Assembly: GCA_963697965.1 (NCBI GenBank) | Contig: OY969108.1 | Location: 246,467-310,466, forward strand | Direction of reading: 5' to 3' | From: an uncultured delta proteobacterium | Lineage (GTDB): Bacteria; Desulfobacterota; Desulfobaccia; Desulfobaccales; 0-14-0-80-60-11 | Length of the DNA stretch: 64,000 nucleotides | Notes under the pieces: model-generated | Seen by the model: only the letters and a program-made list of their open reading frames with translations | What the model was told of the DNA's origin: nothing | Database searches by the model: none | Position numbers and translations under genes: made by a program | In this document: positions 627-12,451 of the stretch, one piece after another | Layout: every line of letters begins with the position of its first letter | Position numbering within the stretch: the stretch's first letter is position 1

Positions 627-1520
627 ATGGAAATTACACCGGAAAAAATTTTAGAGGTGCAAGATCTCACCAAGATCTATGGACCGGGTTGCCCCCTTTG
701 CCTTGCAGCAACCGGACCTGATTATGATACCAATCAGTGCCCCCACTGCGGGTCGGTGGTGGCCTGCGGCCAAGTCTCCCTGGAACTTTACCCGGATGAG
801 ATTCTCGGCATCGTCGGGGAGAGCGGTTCCGGGAAAAGCACCCTGGTAAAGCTGCTTTTTTTTGACGAGGAGGCCACTTCCGGAGCAATGCACTTTCGGG
901 GAAAGAAGTTTTTGAGCCAAAACCAGGCGGAACTGCCCCCGGATTTAAGCGAGCGGGTCAATGGTGAAAATCTCCTGACCCTCAGTTCCTTTCAAAAGAG
1001 GCGGATTAAAAACGCCCTTATGGGCATGGTCTACCAATATCCCCATCTGGGGCTGCGGCTGGAGGTGAGCGCCGGGGGCAATATTGCCGAGCGCTTGATC
1101 ACCGCGGCCTGGCGGCATGTCGGGAACATGCGGCAGCGAGCCACGCATCTCTTTGAAAAAACCGAGATTCCAGTGCAGAGACTGGATGAATCGCCGGAAA
1201 ACTTCAGTGGCGGCATGCAGCAGCGGGTGCAAATCGCCAAGGCCTTGTCCAACAACCCCATGTTTCTGTTTCTGGACGAAGTCAGCACCGGTCTGGACCT
1301 CTCGGTGCAGGCGCGGGTGCTGGACCTGTTGAGAACCCTGCAGCGGGAATTTCACTTATCCATGGTGGCGGTGTCCCACGATCTGGGGGTAATCAGACTC
1401 CTCACCGCCAGGACCATGGTCATGAAAGACGGCCGGATAGTGGAATCGGGACTGACTGACCAGATTTTGGAGGATCCCCAGCATCCCTACACCCAACTGC
1501 TGGTGAATTCCCAACTATAA
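627..1520 (+). CDS. phnK: C-P lyase system ATP-binding protein PhnK
   Basis: Walker A GESGSGKS, signature FSGGMQQR, VSAGGNIAERL and a C-terminal HPYTQLLV as I recall for E. coli PhnK. An extra CPLC...CPHC insert lies near the N-terminus. Confidence 0.85.
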   Translation: MEITPEKILEVQDLTKIYGPGCPLCLAATGPDYDTNQCPHCGSVVACGQVSLELYPDEILGIVGESGSGKSTLVKLLFFDEEATSGAMHFRGKKFLSQNQAELPPDLSERVNGENLLTLSSFQKRRIKNALMGMVYQYPHLGLRLEVSAGGNIAERLITAAWRHVGNMRQRATHLFEKTEIPVQRLDESPENFSGGMQQRVQIAKALSNNPMFLFLDEVSTGLDLSVQARVLDLLRTLQREFHLSMVAVSHDLGVIRLLTARTMVMKDGRIVESGLTDQILEDPQHPYTQLLVNSQL

Positions 1521-1548
1521 AAGGCGATGGTAAGGACGGTCAAAACTG

Positions 1549-2238
1549 ATGCTTGCCTTGGATAATCTAACCAAGACCTTTCATATTCATACCCTGGGCA
1601 ACAAGGTGATCGAAGCCCTCCGGGGGATCTCCCTGGAAGTGGCCCCGGGTGAATTTTTAGGGCTTTCCGGACCCAGCGGTGCGGGTAAGAGCACCATCCT
1701 GAAATGCATCTACCGCACCTACCTCCCCACGGCCGGGGACATCTGGTACGAATCGAGGGACTGCGGCCGGATCAACCTGGCAACTACGGCCAACCGCACC
1801 GTCCTTGGCCTCAGAAGCCGGGAACTCGGTTATGTCTCCCAGTTTTTCCATGTGATCCCCCGGGTTTCCGCCCTGGAGGTGGTGGCGGAACCCCTGGTCA
1901 CCAGGAATGGGATACTGCCGTCTGTGGCCAGAAGGAAGGCTGCCGAGCTGTTGCAACGGCTGCAGATCCCGCCCTCCCTGATGGATGCCTATCCGGCCAC
2001 CTTTAGCGGCGGCGAGCAGCAAAGGGTGAATATTGCGAAAGCGGTTATCTGGAAACCGAGATTGCTGCTCCTGGATGAACCCACCGCCTCGCTGGATTTA
2101 CAGGCGACGGCTGTAGTCATGGAGATCCTTCGAGAACTGAAGAAAGAAGGAACCACCATGATAGGCATATTTCATCGGCAAGACATGGTCCGGCAAATTA
2201 CCGACAGGCTATATGAGATCGGAGGTCAACAGTTATGA
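1549..2238 (+). CDS. phnL: C-P lyase system ATP-binding protein PhnL
   Basis: GPSGAGKST, FSGGEQQRVNIA, LLLDEPTASLD and IGIFH motifs. Position between phnK and phnM. Confidence 0.85.
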   Translation: MLALDNLTKTFHIHTLGNKVIEALRGISLEVAPGEFLGLSGPSGAGKSTILKCIYRTYLPTAGDIWYESRDCGRINLATTANRTVLGLRSRELGYVSQFFHVIPRVSALEVVAEPLVTRNGILPSVARRKAAELLQRLQIPPSLMDAYPATFSGGEQQRVNIAKAVIWKPRLLLLDEPTASLDLQATAVVMEILRELKKEGTTMIGIFHRQDMVRQITDRLYEIGGQQL

Positions 2239-3395
2239 GAGCGGGGGATCAGGCTCTGGTGATTGAGAATGCCCAGGTAGTCACACCTGAGGAGACCCTG
2301 GAAGGGGCCTCGTTAAAGATTGAATCCGGTATGATCGCAGAGATCAAGGCAGGGAAGATAAACTCCGGGGCCCCTCGTTTGGATGCCCGGGGGGGATATG
2401 TCTTGCCGGGTTTCGTTGATCTGCACAGCGATGCGCTGGAAAAAGAGATAGAACCAAGACCGGGAACCTTCTTTCCCAATAACATCGCCATCATTGAACT
2501 GGACAAAAAGCTTGCCGCCTGTGGCATTACCACCATCTTCCATGCCTTGTCTTTCGCGGAGGGGGAAATTGGCGTCCGTTCCAATAAAATGGCGACCCAG
2601 ATAATCACGGAGATCAACCGGCTGGCCCCCCAACTGAAGATAAACACCAAGGTTCACGCCAGATATGAGATAACCGACGCCTTGGCCGTTCCTTATCTCG
2701 AGGAACTCTTGCGCTGCGGCGGAATTCAGCTCTTATCTTTCATGGACCATACCCCGGGACAGGGGCAGTTCAAAGAGGTGGCGTCATTTAAGCAATATTT
2801 CAGCGCGGTTTATGAGAAAACCGATGCAGAGCTAGATAAAATCATAGACCAAAAGGTCCTGGCCAGGGCATCCAGGCACTCACTGATCGAGCGTTTGGCC
2901 ACCCTGGCCAAATCCCTTAACATTCCTCTGGCGTCCCATGATGATGACTGTGCGGCAAAAATCCGGTGGCTGGGGGAGATGGGCATTGGCATCTCAGAAT
3001 TCCCGGTGAATCTGGAGGCGCTTAAAGCTGCCAGGGAAGCAGGTATTTATGTTTGCCTCGGGGCTCCCAATGCCTTGAGGGGAAATTCCAGGTTGGGGAA
3101 CTTGAGCGCCCGGGAAGCCATTTTTTCAGGTCTGGCGGATATCGTTTGCTCCGATTATACGCCCATGGCTATCCTGCATGTGGTTTTCACCCTCCACCAC
3201 CTGGGAAACCTGCCCCTCAACCAGAGCGTGAATCTGGTTAGTCTTAATCCGGCCCAGGCAGTGGGACTGGCGGACCGCCTCGGCTCCCTGGAGACAGGCA
3301 AGAGGGCTGATTTGATGGTAGTGGATGCCTCGGGGGAAGTTCCCCGGATCGTCAAAACCTATGTCGCGGGAGGGGAAGTCTATTCCACATGCTGA
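2235..3395 (+). CDS. phnM: alpha-D-ribose 1-methylphosphonate 5-triphosphate diphosphatase PhnM (amidohydrolase fold)
   Basis: 386 aa amidohydrolase-like protein (GFVDLHSD...). ATGA start/stop overlap with phnL; canonical position after phnL. Confidence 0.8.
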   Translation: MRAGDQALVIENAQVVTPEETLEGASLKIESGMIAEIKAGKINSGAPRLDARGGYVLPGFVDLHSDALEKEIEPRPGTFFPNNIAIIELDKKLAACGITTIFHALSFAEGEIGVRSNKMATQIITEINRLAPQLKINTKVHARYEITDALAVPYLEELLRCGGIQLLSFMDHTPGQGQFKEVASFKQYFSAVYEKTDAELDKIIDQKVLARASRHSLIERLATLAKSLNIPLASHDDDCAAKIRWLGEMGIGISEFPVNLEALKAAREAGIYVCLGAPNALRGNSRLGNLSAREAIFSGLADIVCSDYTPMAILHVVFTLHHLGNLPLNQSVNLVSLNPAQAVGLADRLGSLETGKRADLMVVDASGEVPRIVKTYVAGGEVYSTC

Positions 3396-4315
3396 AGATT
3401 GGCACCAAGATAGATGAAGTGAGAATCGACGGCAACTTGCAAAGGCTCCGGCAAGACCTGGAATATTTTTCCCAGGCCGGGTTGGCGGCCACGGAACTGC
3501 CGGTCCATGGACTGGATGCCATCAAGAATGGCCGTCTGGATAAGGCTCAACTCAAAAGAATCAAGGAAATAGCCCGTAATTTTGCAGGGGCCTTCAGCGT
3601 CCATGCCCCCAATCCCCTCAACCTGATGGACTGCTCCTGTCGTGAGCTCCATCTGTCCGTATTCCGAGCCTCCCTGGAATTTGCCGCCGAAGTGGGGGCC
3701 GAAATTCTGGTCTATCATCCCGGCAGATATATCCCGGAAGTGACCTTCCCCATATACGGCAGGAATGATCTATCAGAGCGGGATAAACAGAACTTGCTGG
3801 CGGCGGAAGCCGAGATGATTCAAGATTTAGCCGAGGAGTATCCCGAAGTGACTATTTGCCTGGAAAATGCCAGGCCATACCTCTTCCATTCCCCTTATTG
3901 CTACGCCGAAAGGCTTGAGCCTTTGCAAGAACAGGTAGCCATAATCGACCGCGACAATGTTAAAATAAATCTCGATTTGGGTCATTTATTCCTCTCGGCC
4001 AGATTTTACGGATTTGATCCCGTGGGGGCCGCGGCTCAAGTAAAAGATTTCATTGCCCATAGCCATGTGCATGATAACTTCGGCAATGCCGTCTATCATC
4101 ATGAAAAACAACAGACCCACCAGATTCCCTTTGGCAAAGGCGATGCCCACATGCCTGTGGGATGGGGCGAAATACCGATTCTGGAAATACTCTCAACTTT
4201 TTTGGACTCATATACCGGCATGCTCATGATGGAGTTAAGAGAAAGATATTTTGCCCATACCCGCGAATCCAAAGAGAACCTGGAAGAGATTTTGACAAAG
4301 ATATCTTTGACGTAA
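3389..4315 (+). CDS. sugar phosphate isomerase/epimerase-like TIM-barrel protein
   Basis: 308 aa with xylose-isomerase-like TIM-barrel features (ILVYHPG, ICLEN, HSHVHDN). Its start overlaps the phnM stop by 7 nt. Confidence 0.6.
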   Translation: MLKIGTKIDEVRIDGNLQRLRQDLEYFSQAGLAATELPVHGLDAIKNGRLDKAQLKRIKEIARNFAGAFSVHAPNPLNLMDCSCRELHLSVFRASLEFAAEVGAEILVYHPGRYIPEVTFPIYGRNDLSERDKQNLLAAEAEMIQDLAEEYPEVTICLENARPYLFHSPYCYAERLEPLQEQVAIIDRDNVKINLDLGHLFLSARFYGFDPVGAAAQVKDFIAHSHVHDNFGNAVYHHEKQQTHQIPFGKGDAHMPVGWGEIPILEILSTFLDSYTGMLMMELRERYFAHTRESKENLEEILTKISLT

Positions 4316-4337
4316 ACCCCATTGCTGCCGCGCCGAA

Positions 4338-5549
4338 GTGCAAAAGCTGGCCGGCAACCTCTGGCTTCACAAGGATAGGGTGCGCAACTTCGTCACCGGA
4401 AAGATTGGCGAGCCTTCTATGAACCACGCAATCCAGCGAACTGTGGTCTGCATGTATGACGGGTTCGGGATGGATTATTTCGAGAGGAGCCGGCTTCCGG
4501 TCATGAAGGGCATGGCCCGGGAAGGTCTGGCCAAGCCCGGACGGGCGGTTTTCCCGACCCTCACCAATGCCAACAATATCTCTATCTGCTGCGCCGCCTG
4601 GCCTGCTGAGCATGGCGTGACGACGAACTGTTATTTCGACGAAACCACGGGAACGGCGCGCTTCTTAGAAGATGCGGATTTTATTCTGGCGCCCACCATA
4701 TTCCAGCGTTTCCGGCAAAAAGGGGTACGCTCGGCACTCCTCACCTGCAAAGCCAAGACCCTGAAGCTCCTCGGCCGGCATGCCGATTTCGCCCTCGCCG
4801 CGGAAGAGCCTGCACCAGAGGTCGTGGAAACATACGGACTCCCGCCTGAAATGTACAGCTCCGAGGTAAATTATTGGCTCTGGGAAATTGCTCTCGATCT
4901 GTTGAAATCGCGTCCAGATCTCGGACTGATTTATGTCCACACCACTGATTACCCCATGCATATGTGGGCCCCCGCAGAATCATTTTCCCTCCACCATCTG
5001 GCGAAGCTCGATGAGCTGCTGGGGGCAGCCCGGGATGCCGCTCCCGATGCCATGTTCTTAATTACCGCCGACCATGGGATGAATCCGAAGCAACGGTGTC
5101 TGGACTTGCGGAAAACCTGCGCCGACTATGGCATTCGGCTCCGCTTCGCAGTTTCTCCGGTGGCCGACCGCCTGCTGAAGCATCACCGGGGCTTCGGGGG
5201 CGTCTCGTATGTTTATGTCAATAACGAGGGGGAGCTTCCCAGGGTTCAGTCCCTCTTGCGCGACCTGCCGGGGGTGGACGATGCCCTGACGCGGCCCGAG
5301 GCCGCCTGCCGTTTCCACCTCATGCCTGAACGGATCGGCGATCTGGTCGTCATGGCTGATAAAGACACGGTTTTTGGCGATCTTGCCGGGTCTAATGAGG
5401 TCTTGGCGGCTGGATACCGCAATCACGGCTCTCTTTATGAACAGGACATCCCGCTAATTCTTTATGGATATGATGGAACCTTGCCCTTGCCCGGGGAGAT
5501 GCAAATGAACTTCGATCTGACGCGCTGGTTGTGCCAAGAAATGTTATAA
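4338..5549 (+). CDS. alkaline-phosphatase-superfamily hydrolase (phosphonoacetate hydrolase / nucleotide pyrophosphatase-like)
   Basis: FPTLTNANNISI...EHGV resembles the nucleophile region of phosphonoacetate hydrolase/NPP enzymes; ITADHGM is a metal site. GTG start at 4338; alternative ATG at 4419 (MNHAIQRTVV). Confidence 0.6.
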   Translation: MQKLAGNLWLHKDRVRNFVTGKIGEPSMNHAIQRTVVCMYDGFGMDYFERSRLPVMKGMAREGLAKPGRAVFPTLTNANNISICCAAWPAEHGVTTNCYFDETTGTARFLEDADFILAPTIFQRFRQKGVRSALLTCKAKTLKLLGRHADFALAAEEPAPEVVETYGLPPEMYSSEVNYWLWEIALDLLKSRPDLGLIYVHTTDYPMHMWAPAESFSLHHLAKLDELLGAARDAAPDAMFLITADHGMNPKQRCLDLRKTCADYGIRLRFAVSPVADRLLKHHRGFGGVSYVYVNNEGELPRVQSLLRDLPGVDDALTRPEAACRFHLMPERIGDLVVMADKDTVFGDLAGSNEVLAAGYRNHGSLYEQDIPLILYGYDGTLPLPGEMQMNFDLTRWLCQEML

Positions 5550-5718: not shown

Positions 5719-6285
5719 TTATTCGAGGACCGCCTCCCCCTTTTCCTGGGGAGGCCGCCACCCCAGCAAACGGCTGGAATTGAAAAAGATCCCCAGGGTA
5801 TGCACCACGTGTATGGCGCCCGCCATCAGAGGGCCCAGACGGCCGCCGATGATCAGAAGTGCCCCCAGAAGATCCGTGGACACCGCCAGCCAGTAATTCT
5901 GTTCTATCACCCTCAGAGTTTGCCGGCTCAGACGCCTGACGAATAAAAGACGTGAGAGGTCACTGTCGGCCAGGGCGATATCCGCCGCGGCGATGGCGGC
6001 CTCAGCCCCCCCTGCGCCCATGGCCACTCCCACCTGGGCCCGGGAAAGGGCCAGGGCGTCGTTCACTCCATCACCCACCACCGCCACCCGGCGCCCTGCA
6101 GCCACCAACTCCTCCACATAATGAGATTTGTCGCCGGGCCGCAGACCCCCGGCCGATCCTTCGAAGTTAAATCTCTGGGCCAGGGCGCGGACCACTGGTT
6201 CCGTGTCCCCGCTGACCAGATGTATTTCCCGGACCCCTTCCCGGCGCAGACCGGACAGCACCGCTGGGACCTCGGGGCGGACCCA
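5719..6285 (-). pseudogene. remnant: C-terminal third of a heavy-metal-type P-type ATPase
   Basis: LVSGDTEPV, VVGDGVNDALAL hinge motif and terminal TM helices. Similarity starts abruptly at ...VRPEVPAVL near 6281; no actuator or phosphorylation domains lie upstream. Confidence 0.8.
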
Positions 6286-6590
6286 TCTTCGAAACCGCGG
6301 TGCTCACGGAAATCATCAAGACCCTCAGCCATCGGGGCCAGGAGCCCCAGGTATACTTTTGGCGCACCGCGGCCGGCGCCGAAGTGGATATCGTGGTGGC
6401 GGAAGGCGGAAGGCTGATTCCCCTGGAGGTTAAACTCTCCGCTACACCCCGCCAGGCCATGGCACGCAACCTCACAGGCTTCCAGAAGGACATGCAGGGC
6501 CGTGCCGCCCCCGGCTACATCATTCACCCCGGCGAAGTTCGGCTACCCCTGGCGCCAGGAGTTACCGCCCTGCCTTTCAGCGACCTTTAA
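6270..6590 (+). pseudogene. remnant: C-terminal (DUF4143-type) part of a COG1373-like AAA ATPase
   Basis: GPIFETAVLTEIIKTLSHRGQEPQVYFWRTAAGAEVDIVV...LIPLEVK. No ATPase domain upstream; it abuts the ATPase remnant head to head. Confidence 0.6.
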
Positions 6591-6703
6591 TGCTTCTACC
6601 GAGACGGTCAAGAATCAATCTGCCAATAGTGGTGACCAATGGGGAAAATCGGGTATTCAGACCATATATGGTATTTTTCCGCTTTGATGATAGGAGCCGA
6701 TCA

Positions 6704-6735
6704 TGGCAAGGTATGTGGCCAATAATCAATCTGAC
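6704..6735 (+). repeat. island repeat copy 1 (TGGCAAGGTATGTGGCCAATAATC...)
   Basis: Shares CATGGCAAGGTAT.TG with copy 2, and the pattern TGGC.AAGGT.TG..CC.ATAATC with copies 3 and 4. Lies 31 nt beyond the PLD stop. Confidence 0.5.
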
Positions 6736-6766
6736 TTTCTTCAGCAGCACTTGTCTATCCCTGGCT

Positions 6767-8342
6767 TCAACTCCCTCCTCCCGTAGAAACTCGACTTAAG
6801 TCGATACCAGCCAATACCCGCGGCGGGAAATCGGTGCCTTTCCAATCGTACACCCGCCCCTCTGGCACCTGTCCACTGCCCTTTGCCGCCTTATTACGGG
6901 CTGCTTGGGCTTTGAAGAAGGTTAAAGCATCACCCTGATTCTCAATCAATTCCAGCGCTTGCTCGATGGAAACCTGGAGGTGTTCTCTCCAAAGCTGCGC
7001 TACCCAATTTTTTATTGTAGCAGTGTCCATGAAGGCGATATTCATTTCAGAGTGGAACCACATGCTCGTGAAGGCGATGTTGGCCGATCCGCCGGTCATT
7101 ACCGTCCAATTGGGACCGAACACGGCCATAGTCTTCGAGTGAATATAGGTTTCGCTGTAGATGAATTTTTCCGGGGTCCGTGGATCAGGCCTGCAGTTGC
7201 CCAGGGTGAGTAGCGCTACATTATCATGGCCCTCCACCATCTTAGACTGATCCTGTAAATAAGAGATCCTCTCCCATTCCTTTTCAACTCTTCCTAGAAA
7301 CCTTCCCTCGTCTGGTTTCCAGGTCAGGAGGGCAATAATTTTGGCGCCTCGTTCGGCAGCCGCATGTATCTCGGCAATAATCCCGTGGTCGTAGAAGTAT
7401 TGGTTTTCGATGTAAACCAAACTTCCTTCCCCGGCGCTCGTCAAGGCTTTCAGATACGAGCTCCCTTATCCCCGTGTCTCCCTTCGGTATCGCGGGGTAG
7501 GTGTTCGGGGCGATGGTCCGCAGCACCTGAACCTCTATCCCGTCGGGCACTGGTGGAATCTTGTCTGCAGTGACCGGGGCCACCACATACGAGGTCACGT
7601 CAGCGTGGGGAATGCTGGCGCCATTATAGCGTTCGACAAAATTAGCCAGAACGTCGCCCACCGCGGGTCCCTTAATCCGGTAGAAAATGTCATGGAGCGG
7701 CGGATTCTGCTCAAGCCATTTAAGCGGATACGGATATTTCCACTCCACGCGTCGAACATCCAACGAATCGTGGTTCGGGGTATCCCAGTAAGTCTGAACC
7801 GGATTGATGCCGCCGACGAAGGCCACCCAGCCGTCTCCACCGTCATCCATGATGTAGGTCTTTTGATGATGACATCCAAATTCCGCAGAAAAATTAATAT
7901 CTTTAGGATCGAAGAGGTTCAGCACCGAAGTATACCGGCCATTAAAGCCTGGAGCTTTATCCCATCGGGCTTGGATGCTGCCAGGTCCCTCATTGACCCC
8001 TGGAATCTTATCAGGGGCCGGATCTGGGATGGTGTCCGGAGTGTGGAGGGCGGGCTGCCACACCACCATGCGAACGTCAACCCGGTCAATTGAGCGAGAC
8101 CTCAAAATGTAGAACAGCGTTTCCTCGACCTTCGGAACATCCGGAACCAATAGGAAATCCTGGTCGCCAAAGGAAATTGTCAGATAAATTAACTTCTTCG
8201 CCTTCTGGAAGGCATCGGCAATCTCGCCGTAGGCTGCCTGTCCATCAATGAGAATCTGAATCTCATTGCCCTGTCGCGGCGGATATGTACCTTCTTGCGC
8301 CCACAGCACGGAAGTTGGGTCAATGGCTTTAGATACTTCCAT
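6767..8342 (-). pseudogene. phospholipase D / two-HKD-motif family gene, interrupted by a 1-nt frameshift
   Basis: ORFs 7284-8342 and 6767-7444 each carry one HKD motif (HHQKTYIMD; IHSKTMAV). The frames join near 7455-7465 (...TGIRE / SYLKALTSAGEGSLVYIENQYF). Confidence 0.8.
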
Positions 8343-8425
8343 GTCTCACCTTCTGTTTTTGATGGTGATCCCGATAACTACATCATATCACAAATGCTTT
8401 TTGGAAATCCGATAAGTTTCTGACA

Positions 8426-8445
8426 TGGCAAGGTATATGATAGCC
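8426..8445 (+). repeat. island repeat copy 2 (TGGCAAGGTATATGATAGCC)
   Basis: 13-nt identity plus flanks with copy 1. Lies 84 nt upstream of the PLD start. Confidence 0.45.
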
Positions 8446-8711
8446 AGCAGCCATGCCCGGAAATGGCATGTGCATGTGGCCCTCAGCCTTTTCTTGGCAC
8501 ACCACTACCAGGAGATAATGGCCTGGAGTCCTTAACCTGCATTACAGTGAGGCATTCTGGTTCTAATGGTGGGGTGTATTCAGATTTTTTAACAAGTTAC
8601 TTGCTTCTTGGAAATTCGTGCTATCATGCCTCCCAAAGGACGCAACAAAAGATGAACCTTCTCGAGGTTAAGCTCGCGGGGGAGGTCCCCAAAACGATTT
8701 TTAGTTTGCGT

Positions 8712-8743
8712 TGGCCAAGGTTGCCCCATAATCTCGGTTTATA
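8712..8743 (+). repeat. island repeat copy 3 (TGGCCAAGGTTGCCCCATAATCTCGGTTTATA)
   Basis: About 28 of 31 positions identical to copy 4. Ends 28 nt before the 8772 start codon; a TATAAT hexamer follows at 8751-8756. Confidence 0.7.
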
Positions 8744-8771
8744 GAGACTGTATAATCATTGTTAGAGGCCT

Positions 8772-9350
8772 ATGGACGAACAACAGGCAAAGGCGCTCCA
8801 GGACCGCACAGAGGCGAAGGTGCGTTACGCGAGCGTGCACTTAGAGGAACTCGCTGCTCTCGAAGCACTGCGGGGAGACGACTTCGATAGGGCCCACCAA
8901 GAATCGTTCCTGTTCCACCTACTTGGAGCGCTCGATGCGTTCCTTGCCGAATTGAACTTCTATTATCAAGGCGGTCTCCCCGTCGAGGGTCTGACACCTG
9001 GCAAGCTCCGTGAGGTCCTCAAGGCACGCGGCGTCGAGAGTGTCGAGTTGAAAGAGATGCGGCAACTGTCGCAAAACGAGACATCCTGGATCAGGCGGGC
9101 AAAGACGATGCGCGATCACAGCACGCATATCCAGGGCGTCGCACGAACGTTCTTCGTAGGCGGAGACCAGGATGGAGAGGTTCGGTTGAAGGACCCGCGT
9201 ACCGCGGCCGATAGCCCACAGCATTTGGTCGACCAGTTCCGAGCTTGGGCAGACGAGATGCGGACTCTTGTTCGGCGGCTGAGGGAATCCGCGCTCGCAC
9301 GGTCGCCTCTAACTCGGAGTTCCAGCGGTCCGGCTGACCCCGACCGCTGA
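8772..9350 (+). CDS. hypothetical protein with Rx4H (HEPN-like) motif
   Basis: 192-aa ORF with a GAGG 4 nt upstream of the ATG. Helix-rich sequence; motif MRDHSTH (R114-x4-H119). No family recognised. Confidence 0.6.
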   Translation: MDEQQAKALQDRTEAKVRYASVHLEELAALEALRGDDFDRAHQESFLFHLLGALDAFLAELNFYYQGGLPVEGLTPGKLREVLKARGVESVELKEMRQLSQNETSWIRRAKTMRDHSTHIQGVARTFFVGGDQDGEVRLKDPRTAADSPQHLVDQFRAWADEMRTLVRRLRESALARSPLTRSSSGPADPDR

Positions 9351-9395
9351 ATGCGCGCGTTAACCTATGTTTTTCAAACCAAAAAGGAAATCTCC

Positions 9396-9962
9396 ATGAA
9401 CGCTGAATATGTCGTAGAATTCGCGAGAAACACTGTCCACTATCTGAATAACGATAAAAGATCATTCGAAAGCGTTTTAGACAATACAGATTTAACCGGC
9501 AAGCTTGGCTTTGCAATGATCGCCACAGCAATGGCAGCTTTTGACTTGTTTGCGTGGATTCTATATCAGTCATTCGACCTCAAGAAGACCAATAAGGCAC
9601 TATATAATGAGCTGATAAATGACGCACGGTTCTTTGATAAGAGGAAGTACGGTAACGAAATTGTATTCTACGGCATCATTCGCTGCGGGGTCATGCACCA
9701 ATTGTACCCCAAGCAGGCGAGCATCTCTGCACAAAAGAGTGCCACTATTCTTTACAATCATGGTGGTATATTGTGCATCAACTCATACGGGTTATTCTGT
9801 GACGTGATGGAAGGCTGCGAAAGAATACGAGACTACCTGGCTTCTCTTTCTGAAGCAGAAAAGACTGATTATTCACTGAAGCTGCTACTGAGGATCAAGA
9901 TTGACGAGGCTGAATACATAGGGGCAAGGGTAAATCTATCGTCTCTACCCGAATTGACATAG
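9396..9962 (+). CDS. hypothetical protein with Rx4H (HEPN-like) motif, low GC
   Basis: ORF open from 9351; ATG at 9396 has AAGGA upstream (MNAEYVVEF...). Motif IIRCGVMHQ (Rx4H). GC about 40% versus about 58% for the preceding gene. Confidence 0.55.
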   Translation: MNAEYVVEFARNTVHYLNNDKRSFESVLDNTDLTGKLGFAMIATAMAAFDLFAWILYQSFDLKKTNKALYNELINDARFFDKRKYGNEIVFYGIIRCGVMHQLYPKQASISAQKSATILYNHGGILCINSYGLFCDVMEGCERIRDYLASLSEAEKTDYSLKLLLRIKIDEAEYIGARVNLSSLPELT

Positions 9963-10091
9963 CAGCGCGTTGCAGCGGACCGGAATCGCGCTGGCGTTTT
10001 ATCTTGTCCCCAAGTTCCTGCTCGGGTACGCATGTTGGCGCCAAGCTTCGTTTGGCAAAAAGGCTGTCCGACCCCGGCACTTACTGCTTTT

Positions 10092-10146
10092 GAGCAAAAG
10101 CAGAGCTTTGAATGTAAGCAGGTTCCCGAAGGAGCTTGGGAACCAG
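10092..10146 (-). repeat. copy of chromosomal GTTCCCAAGCTCC...GGGAAC repeat family inside the island
   Basis: The reverse complement matches 19350-19403 over about 55 nt (CTGGTTCCCAAGCTCCT.C..GGGAACCT...CAAAGCTCTGCTTT.GC). Confidence 0.7.
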
Positions 10147-10179
10147 AAAGAAAGGTCTCCATCCATTTTTTGACTGCAG

Positions 10180-10210
10180 TGGCTAAGGCTGCCGCATAAT
10201 CTCGGTTATA
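10180..10210 (+). repeat. island repeat copy 4 (TGGCTAAGGCTGCCGCATAATCTCGGTTATA)
   Basis: Near-identical to copy 3. Ends 39 nt before the 10250 start codon. Confidence 0.7.
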
Positions 10211-10249
10211 ACCATATCAGAACATTTTATTAGTCTATACCGCTGAGAT

Positions 10250-10702
10250 ATGGCAGAAAAAATGATTTCTATAAGGTTTAGTAAGATTCTCTTTGTATGT
10301 GATGGCAATACCTGTCGAAGCCCAATGGCCGAGGCCATTGCACGAGGGTTACTCGGAACGACGGCCGATGTCCAAAGCGCTGGCATCGATGCTGATAGTG
10401 AGAGCTTGGCGAATAAAAAAGCCATCGCAGTGATGAAAGAAAGGGGGATCGATATCCGGGGGCACCGCTCTCGCGACATTGAAACCATCGATCTATCGGC
10501 CTTTGACCTGATCATAGCCATGACCCCGATTATAGCTCGATACCTCCGATCCCTTGGTATAAGTGGATCGAAGATCATTAAGCTCAACATCGAGGACCCA
10601 TACAATGAGGGTATTGAGGCGTACAGGTTCGCGGCTGAAGCTTTAGAGGTTGAGCTTCGACGTCTTTTCGGGATTGTCCCACCGAGGCAAGCGACAGAAT
10701 GA
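10250..10702 (+). CDS. low-molecular-weight protein tyrosine phosphatase family protein
   Basis: P-loop CDGNTCRS (CX5R-S) at residues 17-24, ILFVC start, DP acid loop (IEDPYN). Confidence 0.8.
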   Translation: MAEKMISIRFSKILFVCDGNTCRSPMAEAIARGLLGTTADVQSAGIDADSESLANKKAIAVMKERGIDIRGHRSRDIETIDLSAFDLIIAMTPIIARYLRSLGISGSKIIKLNIEDPYNEGIEAYRFAAEALEVELRRLFGIVPPRQATE

Positions 10703-11157
10703 AACAGGATCTCGTTCAGTACCTCTCGGATGCCATCTCCAGAGTGGAGGGTGGAAACGTTAGCAGTCCCTCAGGCTCATGGAGCGCGGGTATATTTGGG
10801 AAGGCCACCAACGCGTTTGAGAAAGAGGTACGTTCCTACGTTTTACGTCTGCTCAATTCCTGCAATCTCGACTACGAAATGGATTTGCGCTGTCTGCTAA
10901 AGGGTCTACCTTTCGAGAAGTTAACGCTGGGCAACCTGATTGCTGCCATACGAGAAGGTGCAAACCTGAGACCCCAGGCCGTAGCTCACAACGTTCCAGG
11001 TGGGTGGAAATTGACAGATTTCGTGAAGGCTTTGGAAAAGATCAACAAAACTTGGGTTGACACGAAGCATGGGCAAGAAGTGGCAGAACCTGTATTAATT
11101 GCCCAGATGAAGTCTATGCTCACCATCAGCAAAATGTTGAGGACACACCTCTGGTAG
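10699..11157 (+). CDS. hypothetical protein
   Basis: 152-aa ORF whose ATG overlaps the phosphatase stop (ATGA). Helix-rich, no recognised family; weak K/R-x-H motif (INKTWVDTKHG). Confidence 0.55.
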   Translation: MKQDLVQYLSDAISRVEGGNVSSPSGSWSAGIFGKATNAFEKEVRSYVLRLLNSCNLDYEMDLRCLLKGLPFEKLTLGNLIAAIREGANLRPQAVAHNVPGGWKLTDFVKALEKINKTWVDTKHGQEVAEPVLIAQMKSMLTISKMLRTHLW

Positions 11158-11492
11158 GAGCAATTTCTAATTATTTAAACTAAAATCAAAAATGTGAAAT
11201 CCTTCCGGATAGAGTTTAAGAAATAGGCCCTCGGTGCTGATCAATGCTATATCTTCACACTTCCTCACCCTGCTTTTGGCGTGCTAATATGCATACCATA
11301 GCTGTCTCTCAGAGCCTGATGGCATTCTCTTGGAAAATTTAAAAAAAATTTCCATCCAGATAATATTGATCAGGGGGGGAGGGACTGAGATGCCCCCAAA
11401 AGTGAGACACTTTTTATGAGAGGGTTGGTTTAAAGAAACCATGGCTCAAGTTACCCAGCAGCCCCTCTGGGGGTGGAGGGAGTGTCGATCGG

Positions 11493-11528
11493 TGGGACTA
11501 ATGCTGGGACTATCGCTGGGACCATAAA
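11493..11528 (+). repeat. 12-nt tandem repeat x3 (TGGGACTAATGC TGGGACTATCGC TGGGACCATAAA)
   Basis: Read directly from the sequence. Lies between the island and the tRNA operon terminator. Confidence 0.8.
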
Positions 11529-11558
11529 AGAAAAGGGTTAGCTGATTTAAGCTAACCC
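11524..11558 (-). terminator. rho-independent terminator of the tRNA-Lys/tRNA-Glu operon
   Basis: Stem GGGTTAGC / GCTAACCC with an 8-nt loop, followed on the minus strand by TTTTCTTTT. Lies 12 nt after the tRNA-Glu 3-prime end. Confidence 0.7.
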
Positions 11559-11570
11559 ATTGATTTAATT

Positions 11571-11648
11571 TGGCGTCCCCAACCGGATTTGAACCGGTGT
11601 TGCCGGCGTGAAAGGCCGGTGTCCTGGACCAGACTAGACGATGGGGAC
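11571..11648 (-). tRNA. tRNA-Glu (anticodon UUC), CCA encoded
   Basis: The reverse complement GTCCCCATCGTCTAGTCTGGTCCAGGACACCGGCCTTTCACGCCGGCAACACCGGTTCAAATCCGGTTGGGGACGCCA folds as a cloverleaf with anticodon loop CTTTCAC. Confidence 0.95.
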
Positions 11649-11659
11649 GGAGAGGGTCC

Positions 11660-11735
11660 TGGTGGGCCGTGTTGGATTCGAACCAACGACTCTCTGCTTA
11701 AAAGGCAGATACTCTACCGACTGAGTTAACGGCCC
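11660..11735 (-). tRNA. tRNA-Lys (anticodon UUU), CCA encoded
   Basis: The reverse complement GGGCCGTTAACTCAGTCGGTAGAGTATCTGCCTTTTAAGCAGAGAGTCGTTGGTTCGAATCCAACACGGCCCACCA folds as a cloverleaf with anticodon loop CTTTTAA. Confidence 0.95.
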
Positions 11736-11745
11736 AATCGGCATA

Positions 11746-11775
11746 TTTTTAACTTGTGGGGATGGCATTTGTCAA
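11746..11775 (-). promoter_or_regulatory. sigma70-type promoter of the tRNA operon
   Basis: Minus strand reads TTGACA (11775-11770), a 17-18 nt spacer, then TTAAAA/TAAAAA, about 10 nt before the tRNA-Lys 5-prime end. Confidence 0.6.
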
Positions 11776-11833
11776 GGGTTGGCAGGCATCCGGGAGAGCG
11801 AGGTTCCCGGCCCGGCAATTCCTTAACCGGGCC

Positions 11834-12451
11834 TTAGGCCGCAGCCGCTTCCTTGAGGGCCCTGCGGGTCTCCTCCAGCATGGCGGCATGGACCGTAGGG
11901 GGCGGCCGGGAGGCATCCAGCCGCCGCAAGCGGGGGCCCCGCAGACCGGCGTAGATGGCCTCCACCTGTTTCAGGTAAGGGAAGGATTCGCTCACCTGCC
12001 GGGCCTCTTTGGACTTGCGGGCCAGGCGGCGCATCGCCTCGGCCACCGGCAGCATGAGGATGAACACCAGGTCCGGCGCCGGGGCAAAGGACTGGTTGGC
12101 GGCCAGAATGGCGTCGGCGTCGAGTCCCAGGGCTCCCTGGTAGGCCACCGAGGAATAGTAGTAGCGGTCGCTGATGACGATCCTTCCTGCGGCCAGGGAT
12201 GGCGAGATGAGCTGGGACACGTGGACCCGGCGGTCCTCCATGAAGAGGGAGAGCTCCTCTTCCGGAGAGAGATGGCGGCTGGGACCCTTTAGGTAGCTCC
12301 GGAGCCGCTGCCCGGCGGGGCCGTTGGTCGGTTCCTGGGTCAGGACCACCGGGTGGCCTTCCTTTTTTAGGGTGGCGGCCAACAGCCCGGCCTGGGTGCT
12401 CTTGCCGGAGCCGTCCACCCCTTCTATCGCGATGAGGAAGCCCGGGGCCAC
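11834..12451 (-). CDS. tmk: dTMP (thymidylate) kinase
   Basis: FIAIEGVDGSGKSTQ P-loop, TQEPT and DRY motifs; 205 aa. Confidence 0.9.
   Translation of the reverse strand: MAPGFLIAIEGVDGSGKSTQAGLLAATLKKEGHPVVLTQEPTNGPAGQRLRSYLKGPSRHLSPEEELSLFMEDRRVHVSQLISPSLAAGRIVISDRYYYSSVAYQGALGLDADAILAANQSFAPAPDLVFILMLPVAEAMRRLARKSKEARQVSESFPYLKQVEAIYAGLRGPRLRRLDASRPPPTVHAAMLEETRRALKEAAAA

Follow-up and report, generated by a model that had tools for sequence, protein, structure and literature searches.

The repeats bounding gene modules in a Desulfobaccales genomic island as probable relics of an IS1380-family insertion sequence

Genes and repeats of the island

The DNA analysed here, hereafter the window, is a stretch of 64,000 nucleotides from an uncultured member of the Desulfobaccales, in which an island of genes is accompanied by four repeats. 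A PLD-like gene, with a weak match to Pfam PLDc_2, occupies 6767–8342 on the minus strand, exactly between two direct left-end fragments described below; in the window two ORFs represent it, but the near-identical contigs L067–L070 have it as one gene of 524 aa. Two modules lie on the plus strand: module 1 (8772–9962) encodes a DUF6586 protein (8772–9350; Pfam E = 1.7e-10) and a 188-aa protein (9396–9962), and module 2 (10250–11157) a low-molecular-weight phosphotyrosine phosphatase/ArsC-like protein (10250–10702; Pfam LMWPc, E = 9e-28) and a 152-aa protein (10699–11157), the two genes overlapping in an ATGA. Broken genes are abundant in the region and include, besides the split PLD gene, a HAD/ATPase piece and a DUF4143 tail. 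The island adjoins tRNA genes.

The sole NCBIfam matches of the island proteins were to ArsC/PTP, below the cut-off, and PADLOC gave no match for any of them, while PDB sequence searches with the module proteins returned nothing meaningful. Exact-protein look-ups of the module proteins led back to this island alone, as present in near-identical genomes, with no independent context. It had been suggested to look for the motif beside similar genes elsewhere; at the 66 loci with IS ends reported below, no homologues of the module proteins were found.

The four repeats described in the sequence-only reading are present, each at most 1–2 nt from where it had been placed. Copies 1 and 2 (6702–6727 and 8424–8445) share CATGGCAAGGTAT, starting at 6702 and 8424, and copies 3 and 4 (8712–8743 and 10180–10210) share TGGC[C/T]AAGG[T/C]TGCC[C/G]CATAATCTCGGTT, starting at 8712 and 10180. 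The match between copies 3 and 4 was equalled in 0 of 100 shuffles, and their 43-nt pair, 81% identical (8697–8739 and 10165–10207), was reached in 0 of 200. The four had been taken for a single TGGC.AAGG family with a unit of ~30 nt, and neither part of this description holds: they fall into two families, the left end (copies 1 and 2) and the right end (copies 3 and 4) of an insertion sequence (IS), and copy 3 is the tip of a homologous block of ~290 nt (8450–8737), copy 4 that of a block of ~63 nt. In fact, right-end profiles gave no match to copies 1 and 2 even at E ≤ 100, and these have TGGCAAGG where the right-end copies have TGGCNAAGG. On the other points the first description was accurate. 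A shuffle-checked motif search and a profile search found no further copies of the motif in the 64-kb window, where a profile model built from other genomes matched copies 3 and 4 only. The spacing to the start codons was also right: 34 nt separate the IS end at 8737 from the ATG of module 1 (8772), and 44 nt separate the IS end at 10205 from the ATG of module 2 (10250), both modules being co-oriented with these ends.

The similarity of copies 1 and 2 had to be judged in two ways. As a bare pair (16 nt, 15/16 identical) they are at chance level, with a score attained by 28% of the shuffles. However, a left-end profile, built solely from the loci L042, L053 and L006 of three other genomes, picks both sites, its two best matches in the window being 6652–6716 (E = 3.2e-7) and 8382–8436 (E = 0.079). 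Since an IS left-end profile derived from other genomes ranks both sites top in the window, we consider copies 1 and 2 real; their interpretation as chance matches was dropped on these profile matches and on the recurrent left junction TGGCAAG[T/G]TAT.

The complete element in other genomes

A search of other genomes for the motif, proposed when the repeats were first noticed, located the 21-nt core AAGGNTGCCNCATAATCTCGG at 66 loci, 65 of which have flanking similarity, compared with ~4 matches expected by chance according to our own estimate from the information content of the pattern. Nearly all the loci belong to Desulfobaccales or deltaproteobacterial MAGs, often with several per MAG. The similarity among them extends for >200 nt upstream of the tip and stops abruptly after CTCGG, the bases beyond being variable.

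The loci L029, L033, L041 and L051 hold a complete IS (1610, 1622, 1630 and 1610 bp, respectively), which begins with CCTGGATTATGCGGCAAG (IRL), closes with the right-end motif and has one ORF of 438 aa in each case. Reverse-complemented, the right end reads CCGAGATTATGCGGCAAC and agrees with the IRL at 15 of 18 positions, and the repeats start with CC. The motif-linked transposases of L041 and L051 scored 354–365 bits with NCBIfam NF033539 (IS1380; cut-off 180) and 410–418 bits with Pfam PF13701 (DDE_Tnp_1_4). L051 is a simple insertion, with a 5-bp duplication, TCAAC, directly abutting both ends; for the IS copies in L033 and L041 no target duplication was recoverable. The repeats of the window are therefore the ends of an IS whose full architecture is observed at these loci. 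The complete copies have the transposase type, the size with a single ORF, the inverted repeats starting with CC and the 4–5-bp target duplication of the IS1380 family and, judged by its sequence, the element is an IS1380-family IS of ~1.61–1.63 kb, with one DDE transposase, 18-nt terminal inverted repeats and a 5-bp target duplication. It is apparently unnamed, and widespread in Desulfobaccales and related deltaproteobacterial genomes.

The sharp 3′ boundary of the conservation, with variable sequence beyond it, and the extended −10-like box that precedes this boundary by ~110 nt would also suit a structured RNA; the ~200-nt block would then encode an RNA or form a leader, such as a TnpB/IscB-type guide-RNA scaffold. 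We consider this extremely unlikely: an Rfam search of positions 6000–12000 at E ≤ 1 returned two tRNAs only, with no match to the repeats, the folding is not above that of shuffles, and the hairpin lacks compensatory changes, some copies having direct CGGG..CGGG repeats instead. The omega-RNA scaffold, which the sharp boundary had brought to mind, was abandoned once the linked ORF had been identified as an IS1380 DDE transposase and not as TnpB/IscB. The idea that a conserved hairpin or a terminator precedes the tip was likewise discarded, the stem being without compensatory changes and folding like shuffled sequences.

Relics of the element in the window

A tblastn search with the L051 transposase revealed no full-length IS copy in the window, and the copies present there are only ~70% identical to intact elements. 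The same search matched aa 410–437 (57% identity, E = 1.5e-5), and together with the nucleotide alignment it delimited a relic of the IS1380 transposase at 8446–8535 on the plus strand, consisting of the last 28 codons and the stop (SSHARKWHVHVALSLFLAHHYQEIMAWSP*). The 3′ non-coding right end of the IS follows at 8536–8737 (plus strand; nhmmer 8517–8737, E = 3e-38); it contains copy 3 and closes with the IRR GTTGCCCCATAATCTCGG at 8720–8737, and the nucleotide alignment of 8450–8737 to IS right ends gave E-values down to 4e-32. On the other side, a left end at 8381–8440 (plus strand), containing copy 2, has an IRL-like stretch, CATCATATCACAAAT, at 8381–8395 and then ...GATAAGT...TGGCAAGGTATATG; the TGGCAAG[T/G]TAT junction of copy 2 aligns with L042 and L013. 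The left-end match of copy 2 is marginal when taken alone. The element at 8381–8737 (~357 nt) has thus kept ~60 nt from the left end of the IS and ~290 nt from its right end, and has lost the transposase; with both IS termini, no transposase and a small size, it is a MITE-like, internally deleted copy.

Two further fragments, both on the plus strand, accompany it. The solo left end at 6652–6716, the best match of the left-end profile in the window, contains copy 1 and consists of an IRL-like stretch, CAGACCATATATGGTAT, at 6658–6674, followed by a 5′-leader-like sequence closing with TGGCAAGGTATGTG. The solo right end at 10143–10205, which corresponds to the last ~63 nt of the IS and contains copy 4, was detected by nhmmer with E-values from 4e-16 to 9e-15 and by blastn with 84–93% identity to many IS right ends; its IRR is GCTGCCGCATAATCTCGG, at 10188–10205. 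The relics of the window are thus three, namely a solo left end, a MITE-like copy and a solo right end, with nothing autonomous left. The proposal that the repeats are footprints of a small mobile element was essentially right, in that they are left- and right-end fragments of an IS1380-family IS and of its MITE-like derivative.

No target duplications were found flanking the relics of the window, nor beside the MITE-like copies of L002, L055 and L065; the flanks of the MITE-like copy of the window, as those of L002 and L055, mismatch. The IS copies at modules 1 and 2 have lost their left parts. Module capture and the simple insertion of the IS before resident genes, followed by decay, are therefore inseparable at the window relics.

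Right ends and the genes that follow them

When the loci were classified by tblastn coverage, the transposase was kept in only 4–5 of ~65, and the remaining ones were right-end pieces of 23–390 nt. Other MITE-like derivatives, of 254–390 nt, occur in L002, L055, L042 and others. In 52 distinct flanks, the first ORF was called automatically as co-oriented with the right end in 38 and as opposed in 14, and the start codon lay at a median distance of ~35 nt from the right end; the ORF calls are crude and the MAG loci may include orthologous insertions, and inspection of the ORF tables shifts several of the 14 opposed flanks to the co-oriented group. A bias in orientation and distance is thus observed.

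Complete outward promoters have been published for right ends of the IS1380 family (PMC9330008), and a strong one for ISPme1/IS1247 of Paracoccus (PMC3281130; PMC9330008). Candidate elements are also recognisable in the window: the right end with copy 3 has an extended −10-like box, TGCTATCAT, at 8619–8627 and TAGTTT-N19-CATAAT at 8702–8732, and the solo right end has TTGACT at 10170–10175 and CATAAT at 10195–10200, separated by a 19-nt spacer. With a spacer of 19 nt the candidate terminal promoter is suboptimal for sigma-70; moreover, the candidate −35 of copy 3 (TAGTTT) is degenerate, and a simple scan for sigma-70 consensus promoters reported no site at either right-end repeat. The right end may act as an outward promoter, although the conservation of its tip is equally explained by transposase binding.

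A shared promoter had been among the first explanations of the repeats, and it may hold secondarily, with the right end lying close upstream of co-oriented genes; what did not stand is an operator of a host regulon. According to the latter hypothesis, an operator/promoter, e.g., of sigma-54 type or with a MerR-type site in the 19-nt spacer, would co-control both operons and many other genes. The motif does lie 34–44 nt upstream of both operons and before a co-oriented gene in most loci, TGGC...TTGC loosely resembles a −24/−12 element, and the spacer GCGGTGGCCAAGGTTGCCGC, as read from the consensus, has a partial dyad symmetry. Nevertheless, we regard a regulon as very unlikely, because the motif physically forms the end of an element that encodes a transposase and has inverted repeats and a target duplication, the conservation spans >200 nt, including the C-terminus of the transposase, and the downstream genes are functionally unrelated. 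The sigma-54 promoter was examined separately. In its consensus, GG and GC are 10 nt apart (TGGCAC-N5-TTGC); in TGGCCAAGGTTGCC they stand as GG-N8-GC, or as N11 when counted from the GG before, and this candidate was rejected.

Mobilisation of adjacent DNA

In the locus L029, the complete IS is followed by 1639 bp of cargo and by a degenerate solo right end (..GCGGTGGCC..CTGCATAATCTCAG), and TTCAC flanks the whole unit. A right-end-like 19-mer as good as this solo end has a background frequency of 1.75e-4. L029 is thus one transposable module, in which a solo right end serves as the surrogate terminus and the duplication encloses the entire unit. Downstream of L033, L041, L065, L055 and L002, no surrogate ends were found.

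On this basis, members of the family would mobilise DNA located 3′ of their own right end, a second, downstream right-end-like sequence serving as the surrogate terminus of a transposable module, as in ISEcp1 and ISPme1. The right end would carry outward-reading promoter elements and, upon loss of the transposase gene, the promoter-bearing tip would remain before captured or activated genes. Mobilisation via surrogate termini would account for the layout of repeat, module, repeat, module in the window, and modules 1 and 2 may have arrived as such IS units, or may be driven by them. That the repeats are relics of a Desulfobaccales IS1380-family IS, with module mobilisation and outward promoter elements, is the best explanation and, in our opinion, a highly probable one.

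The order of repeats and genes, on one strand and beside tRNA genes, and the similar layout of L049, with four direct left ends spaced 1.3–1.5 kb, also recall an integron-like array, in which the repeats would be attC-type sites delimiting promoterless cassettes placed by a site-specific recombinase, as had been proposed with the recombination sites of a cassette array. We give this practically no credit. There is no tyrosine recombinase in the ORFs of the island or in the genes called within ~5 kb on either side, a statement that covers the island and these flanks, the Pfam overview of the 56 window ORFs comprising the best 25 families. When both strands of both repeats were folded as single-strand DNA, z ranged from 0.01 to −1.36, not above shuffles and with nothing attC-like; conserved GTTRRRY/RYYYAAC cores are missing and the bases after CTCGG are variable. 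The repeats, moreover, lie upstream and not downstream of the genes, and they demonstrably terminate a DDE transposon that has a 5-bp target duplication.

A more serious alternative, which we nonetheless hold to be unlikely, is that the repeats are inert debris, i.e., randomly decayed pieces of the IS in an integration hot spot beside tRNA genes, with no promoter role and with modules that the IS did not move. In its favour, broken genes abound in the region, target duplications could not be recovered, the ~70% identity of the window copies to intact elements makes them old, and the −35 of copy 3 is degenerate. Against this, co-oriented genes that start ~10–100 nt from the right end are strongly over-represented across independent loci, and the terminal tip is nearly always kept in surviving fragments, in a genome scan that demanded the last 21 nt intact and is thus biased towards well-kept, possibly selected ends. 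Moreover, the L029 unit shows solo right ends still in use as transposition termini, and there is precedent in the family (PMC9330008).

Related systems and implications

An outward promoter and gene mobilisation similar to those of ISEcp1 and ISPme1 are the best reading of the data, the promoter being a candidate. The element shares with ISEcp1 the IS1380 transposase family; the right end of ISEcp1 has outward promoter elements near the IRR, surrogate right ends allow 3′ DNA to be mobilised, with a 5-bp duplication that encloses the unit as a whole, and remnants of the right end of ~200 bp, which bear the promoter, persist upstream of captured bla genes (PMC9330008). Such mobilisation of 3′-adjacent DNA, and the 'promoter fixation' by the ~200-bp remnant of ISEcp1, have been described for the IS1380 family (PMC9330008). 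By contrast, the hosts of ISEcp1 are Enterobacterales, whereas the present element resides in environmental Desulfobaccales; the two share only a CCnnGATT-type tip in their otherwise unrelated terminal sequences; the present element has a longer 3′ non-coding region (~210 nt), with a putative promoter, and its cargo consists of ordinary chromosomal or uncharacterised genes and not of resistance genes.

In Paracoccus, IS1247 is 1672 bp long, with a 5-bp DR, and TMos have been described (PMC3281130). As in the ISPme1/IS1247 TMos, in which one IS1380-family copy and variable 3′ DNA move as a unit, so exactly is L029 built; its surrogate terminus, however, is a decayed copy of the right end and not a fortuitous look-alike, which makes L029 nearer to a composite transposon of one and a half IS than to a TMo with a fortuitous end. 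The element at 8381–8737 resembles MITEs in having both termini and no transposase; unlike them, the mobility of the window, L002 and L055 copies is putative, with no target duplication, and many copies are one-ended, having kept the right end alone.

This kind of mobile DNA is already known, and the finding is real but ordinary. The puzzling layout of repeats and modules is accounted for by IS1380-family debris, and no new system is needed. More speculatively, and in our view doubtfully, right-end fragments may have been recruited at scale in the Desulfobaccales as portable promoters ~10–100 nt before dozens of unrelated genes and as usable surrogate termini, so that integron-like, promoter-led arrays of modules would be built by a DDE transposase. 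If so, any gene that has a solo right end on one side and an active IS or a left end on the other would be movable, and the island of the window and L049 would be decayed examples. Likewise, should the outward promoter be confirmed, ISEcp1-style capture and activation, so far known mainly through the spread of antibiotic resistance, would be broad in environmental anaerobes and act on ordinary genes. The analysis also provides, for an uncultured and environmentally important order, the terminal sequences and the architecture of an apparently unnamed IS1380-family element and of its derivatives, both MITE-like and one-ended, and these termini aid the annotation of Desulfobaccales MAGs and account for contig breaks in them.

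Terminal Repeats of an IS1380-Family Element

The four short direct repeats of the island (copies 1–4) are relics of an IS1380-family insertion sequence (IS) and of its non-autonomous derivatives. A check of the sequence placed all of them within 1–2 nt of the positions given in the sequence-only reading. Copies 3 and 4 match each other in direct orientation over 43 nt at 81% identity (8697–8739 and 10165–10207), and no shuffle of the window or of the island reproduced this. Copies 1 and 2 are identical at 15 of 16 nt (6702–6717 and 8424–8439); taken alone, this pair is at chance level, since 28% of dinucleotide shuffles of a 5.6-kb region gave an equal or better top match, and among local alignments within the island it ranks second by a small margin only.

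Scanning one representative genome per species with the right-end core AAGGNTGCCNCATAATCTCGG returned 66 loci, with about 4 expected by chance according to our estimate, nearly all in Desulfobaccales, 'delta proteobacterium' or Syntrophobacterales MAGs, and often several per MAG. One match in Pseudoalteromonas was attributed to chance, its flanks showing no similarity. Two IMG/VR contigs of ~44 kb, viral or proviral, each contain a single copy of the 21-nt core as well (L076 and L077). When the loci were aligned in register, the likeness reached more than 200 nt upstream and ended sharply after CTCGG. The proposal that the repeats are recombination sites of a cassette array, as in an integron-like attC array, had to be abandoned: there is no conserved core past this boundary, the repeats have no attC-like fold, and an integrase is absent in or near the island.

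In L029, L033, L041 and L051 a 438-aa ORF lies upstream of the conserved block; it stops ~210 nt short of the right boundary and is an IS1380-family transposase (NF033539, 354–365 bits vs. a cut-off of 180; PF13701, 410–418 bits). About 1610–1630 bp upstream of the same boundary these loci carry CCTGGATTATGCGGCAAG, identical at 15 of 18 positions to the right tip in reverse complement (CCGAGATTATGCGGCAAC); in L051 the 5-bp sequence TCAAC directly abuts both tips. Size, single ORF, inverted repeats starting with CC and 5-bp duplication are those of the published IS1380 family, of which IS1247 measures 1672 bp with a 5-bp direct repeat (PMC3281130), and they identify the copy 3/4 motif as the right terminal inverted repeat (IRR) with its subterminal DNA. 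This transposon anatomy clashes with a host operator or sigma-54 site, the latter being disfavoured also by the spacing in the motif (GG-N8-GC). As for a structured RNA, Rfam gave no match and the folding was unexceptional, while an omega-RNA is at odds with the linked protein, a DDE transposase.

Within the 64 kb, right-end profiles matched at 8517–8737 (E = 3e-38) and 10143–10205 (E = 4e-16) and in no other place, so that the claim that the motif occurs nowhere else in the window holds for the right end. The copy 3 block (8450–8737) is ~70% identical to the IS right ends (E = 4e-32) and overlaps a relic of the transposase C-terminus at 8446–8529 (last 28 residues, 57% identity, E = 1.5e-5); a search with the IS transposase found no full transposase gene in the window. 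The match at 10143–10205 is a solo right end. Just 5′ of it, and 3′ of the first gene module, lies a strong hairpin without a T-tract (GGTTCCCGAAGGAGCTTGGGAACC, 10121–10144), which may be a terminator or a piece of the IS subterminal region.

Left Ends and Internally Deleted Copies

Copies 1 and 2 were not seen by the right-end profiles even at E ≤ 100, and thus neither belongs to the right-end family; the idea of a single four-member family with a TGGC/AAGG core has to be given up, as these letters sit in non-equivalent parts of the IS and are shared by coincidence. Truncated copies in L010, L013, L016, L042, L043, L053 and L061 have unrelated left flanks and a common start junction, TGGCAAGTTATGCG, and the window block aligned to them shows TGGCAAGGTATA at the same junction, followed by a 56-nt deletion. 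In L042, L053, L006 and both window copies ~55 nt more are kept upstream (..ATTCAGATCATATCTGCAATTTTT..GATAACT..TGGCAAG), which by eye are homologous to the left inverted repeat (IRL) of the full IS and its 5′ leader (GGATTATGCGGCAA..CTAACTAT..ATAAGGGGAA). A left-end profile built from L042, L053 and L006 alone, with the window copies excluded, found its two best window matches at 6652–6716 (E = 3.2e-7) and 8382–8436 (E = 0.079), exactly the regions that end in copies 1 and 2. The kinship of these two copies, which their bare likeness did not raise above shuffle expectation, stands through this profile.

The window therefore contains a solo left end (6652–6716) and, at 8381–8737, a MITE-like internally deleted IS copy of ~357 nt with both ends present; the profile and transposase evidence bears out the earlier suggestion of footprints of a small mobile element. 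The PLD-like gene (6767–8342, minus strand), described as bracketed by copies 1 and 2, does have a left end on either side, the two being in the same orientation. The solo left end is itself flanked by a direct repeat of 17 nt (GGTCAAGAATCAATCTG at 6606–6622, GGCCAATAATCAATCTG at 6717–6733), whose score is at chance level in shuffles.

Further arrangements of IS ends were observed in other genomes. In L049 (CAVZAM010000045.1, reverse complement 909–5297) four direct left-end modules spaced 1.3–1.5 kb are interspersed among genes and three pieces of the right end, giving an array-like accumulation of IS debris similar to the island. A ~1.8-kb unit, comprising a truncated mini-IS from TGGCAAGTTATGCG, a 136-aa secreted protein, an opposite-strand 153-aa ORF and the end ...GAGCATAGCTGCTAT, recurs in L010, L042 and L062 (one MAG, CAWCKU01, three times), L003, L016, L032, L043, L053 and L061, with no target duplication seen at any of them. 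In L065 (JAUXZG010000215.1), 1346 bp up to the motif hold the IRL CCTGGATTATGCCGCA, a 336-aa outer-membrane-like ORF replacing the transposase and a 231-nt right end, a possible mobile insertion cassette; its flanks have only CTA in common.

Genes Downstream of the Right Ends

The true right ends in the window are at 8737 and 10205, leaving 34 nt to the ATG of module 1 (8772) and 44 nt to that of module 2 (10250). Across 52 distinct flanks the automatic call found the first downstream ORF co-oriented with the right end in 38 and opposed in 14, with a median of ~35 nt from IS tip to start codon; inspection of the ORF tables shifted several opposed cases (e.g., L026, L027, L058 and L060) to co-oriented, leaving about four clearly convergent ones. 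In many flanks a Shine-Dalgarno sequence and an ATG follow within 15–60 nt of the tip, and the genes are mutually unrelated (regulators, a glycosyltransferase, an aminotransferase, many small secreted proteins). Since so little room between tip and start implies that the native promoter was displaced, the IS tip is most likely the promoter source of these genes. Two candidate promoters fall in well-conserved columns of the right-end consensus: an extended −10-like TGCTATCAT lying ~110 nt upstream of the tip (window 8619–8627), and TTGACT-N19-CATAAT at the tip (window 10170–10200). Of the shared operator/promoter proposed earlier, the promoter part may hold, given the prevalence of co-oriented genes close to the tip, whereas the host operator gives way to transposon anatomy.

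In L029 a full IS is followed by 1639 bp of cargo, which encodes a secreted protein of 404 aa, and then by a solo right end that has degenerated; TTCAC flanks the unit as a whole. Among these loci, 19-mers as IRR-like as this solo end occur at 1.75e-4, which over the four candidate positions examined gives a coincidence p of ~7e-4. This architecture, which is that of the ISPme1 and ISEcp1 transposable modules, shows that solo right ends still serve as transposition termini. Complete outward promoters and ~200-bp promoter-bearing remnants before captured genes have been described in the IS1380 family (PMC9330008). From L029 and this precedent we infer that modules 1 and 2, each behind a right-end remnant, would either have been captured in the form of modules or have been activated at their existing site, and that the IS bodies would have decayed afterwards. 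No target duplications survive around the window's relics, and none of the module genes turned up next to an IS end in other loci; their only further occurrences are in the same island of near-identical genomes.

For the window, the main alternative is that the relics are inert debris without a promoter role. Against it, most copies lack the transposase, which is kept in only four or five of about 65 loci, and the pieces retained in the others are right ends (23–390 nt, even with 1.9 kb of upstream sequence at hand), lying close upstream of co-oriented genes and, as in L029, still usable as termini. The relics are probably still acting as promoters. The explanation is an ordinary one, of modest interest past annotation unless promoter donation and module building prove to be large-scale in Desulfobaccales.

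Neighbouring Genes of the Island

Module 1 (8772–9962) encodes a DUF6586 protein and a 188-aa protein; module 2 (10250–11157) encodes a low-molecular-weight (LMW) phosphotyrosine phosphatase/ArsC-like protein, whose gene overlaps by ATGA that of a 152-aa protein. PADLOC found no match for either module, and PDB sequence searches yielded nothing informative; possible roles are accessory, stress-related or toxin-antitoxin-like. The PLD-like gene is split in the window into two overlapping ORFs (6767–7444 and 7284–8342), while the near-identical contigs L067–L070 have one 524-aa gene, indicating either an assembly frameshift error or a strain-specific pseudogene. The island is bordered by thymidylate kinase, tRNA-Lys and tRNA-Glu genes on one side and by a phosphodiesterase gene on the other. 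Gene debris occupies its left edge (5719–6590): the C-terminal part of a HAD/P-type-ATPase-like hydrolase (5719–6261, minus strand) and the final 96 residues of a DUF4143 ATPase (6300–6590, plus strand). The DUF4143 piece shares 85% identity with a portion of a protein from L001.
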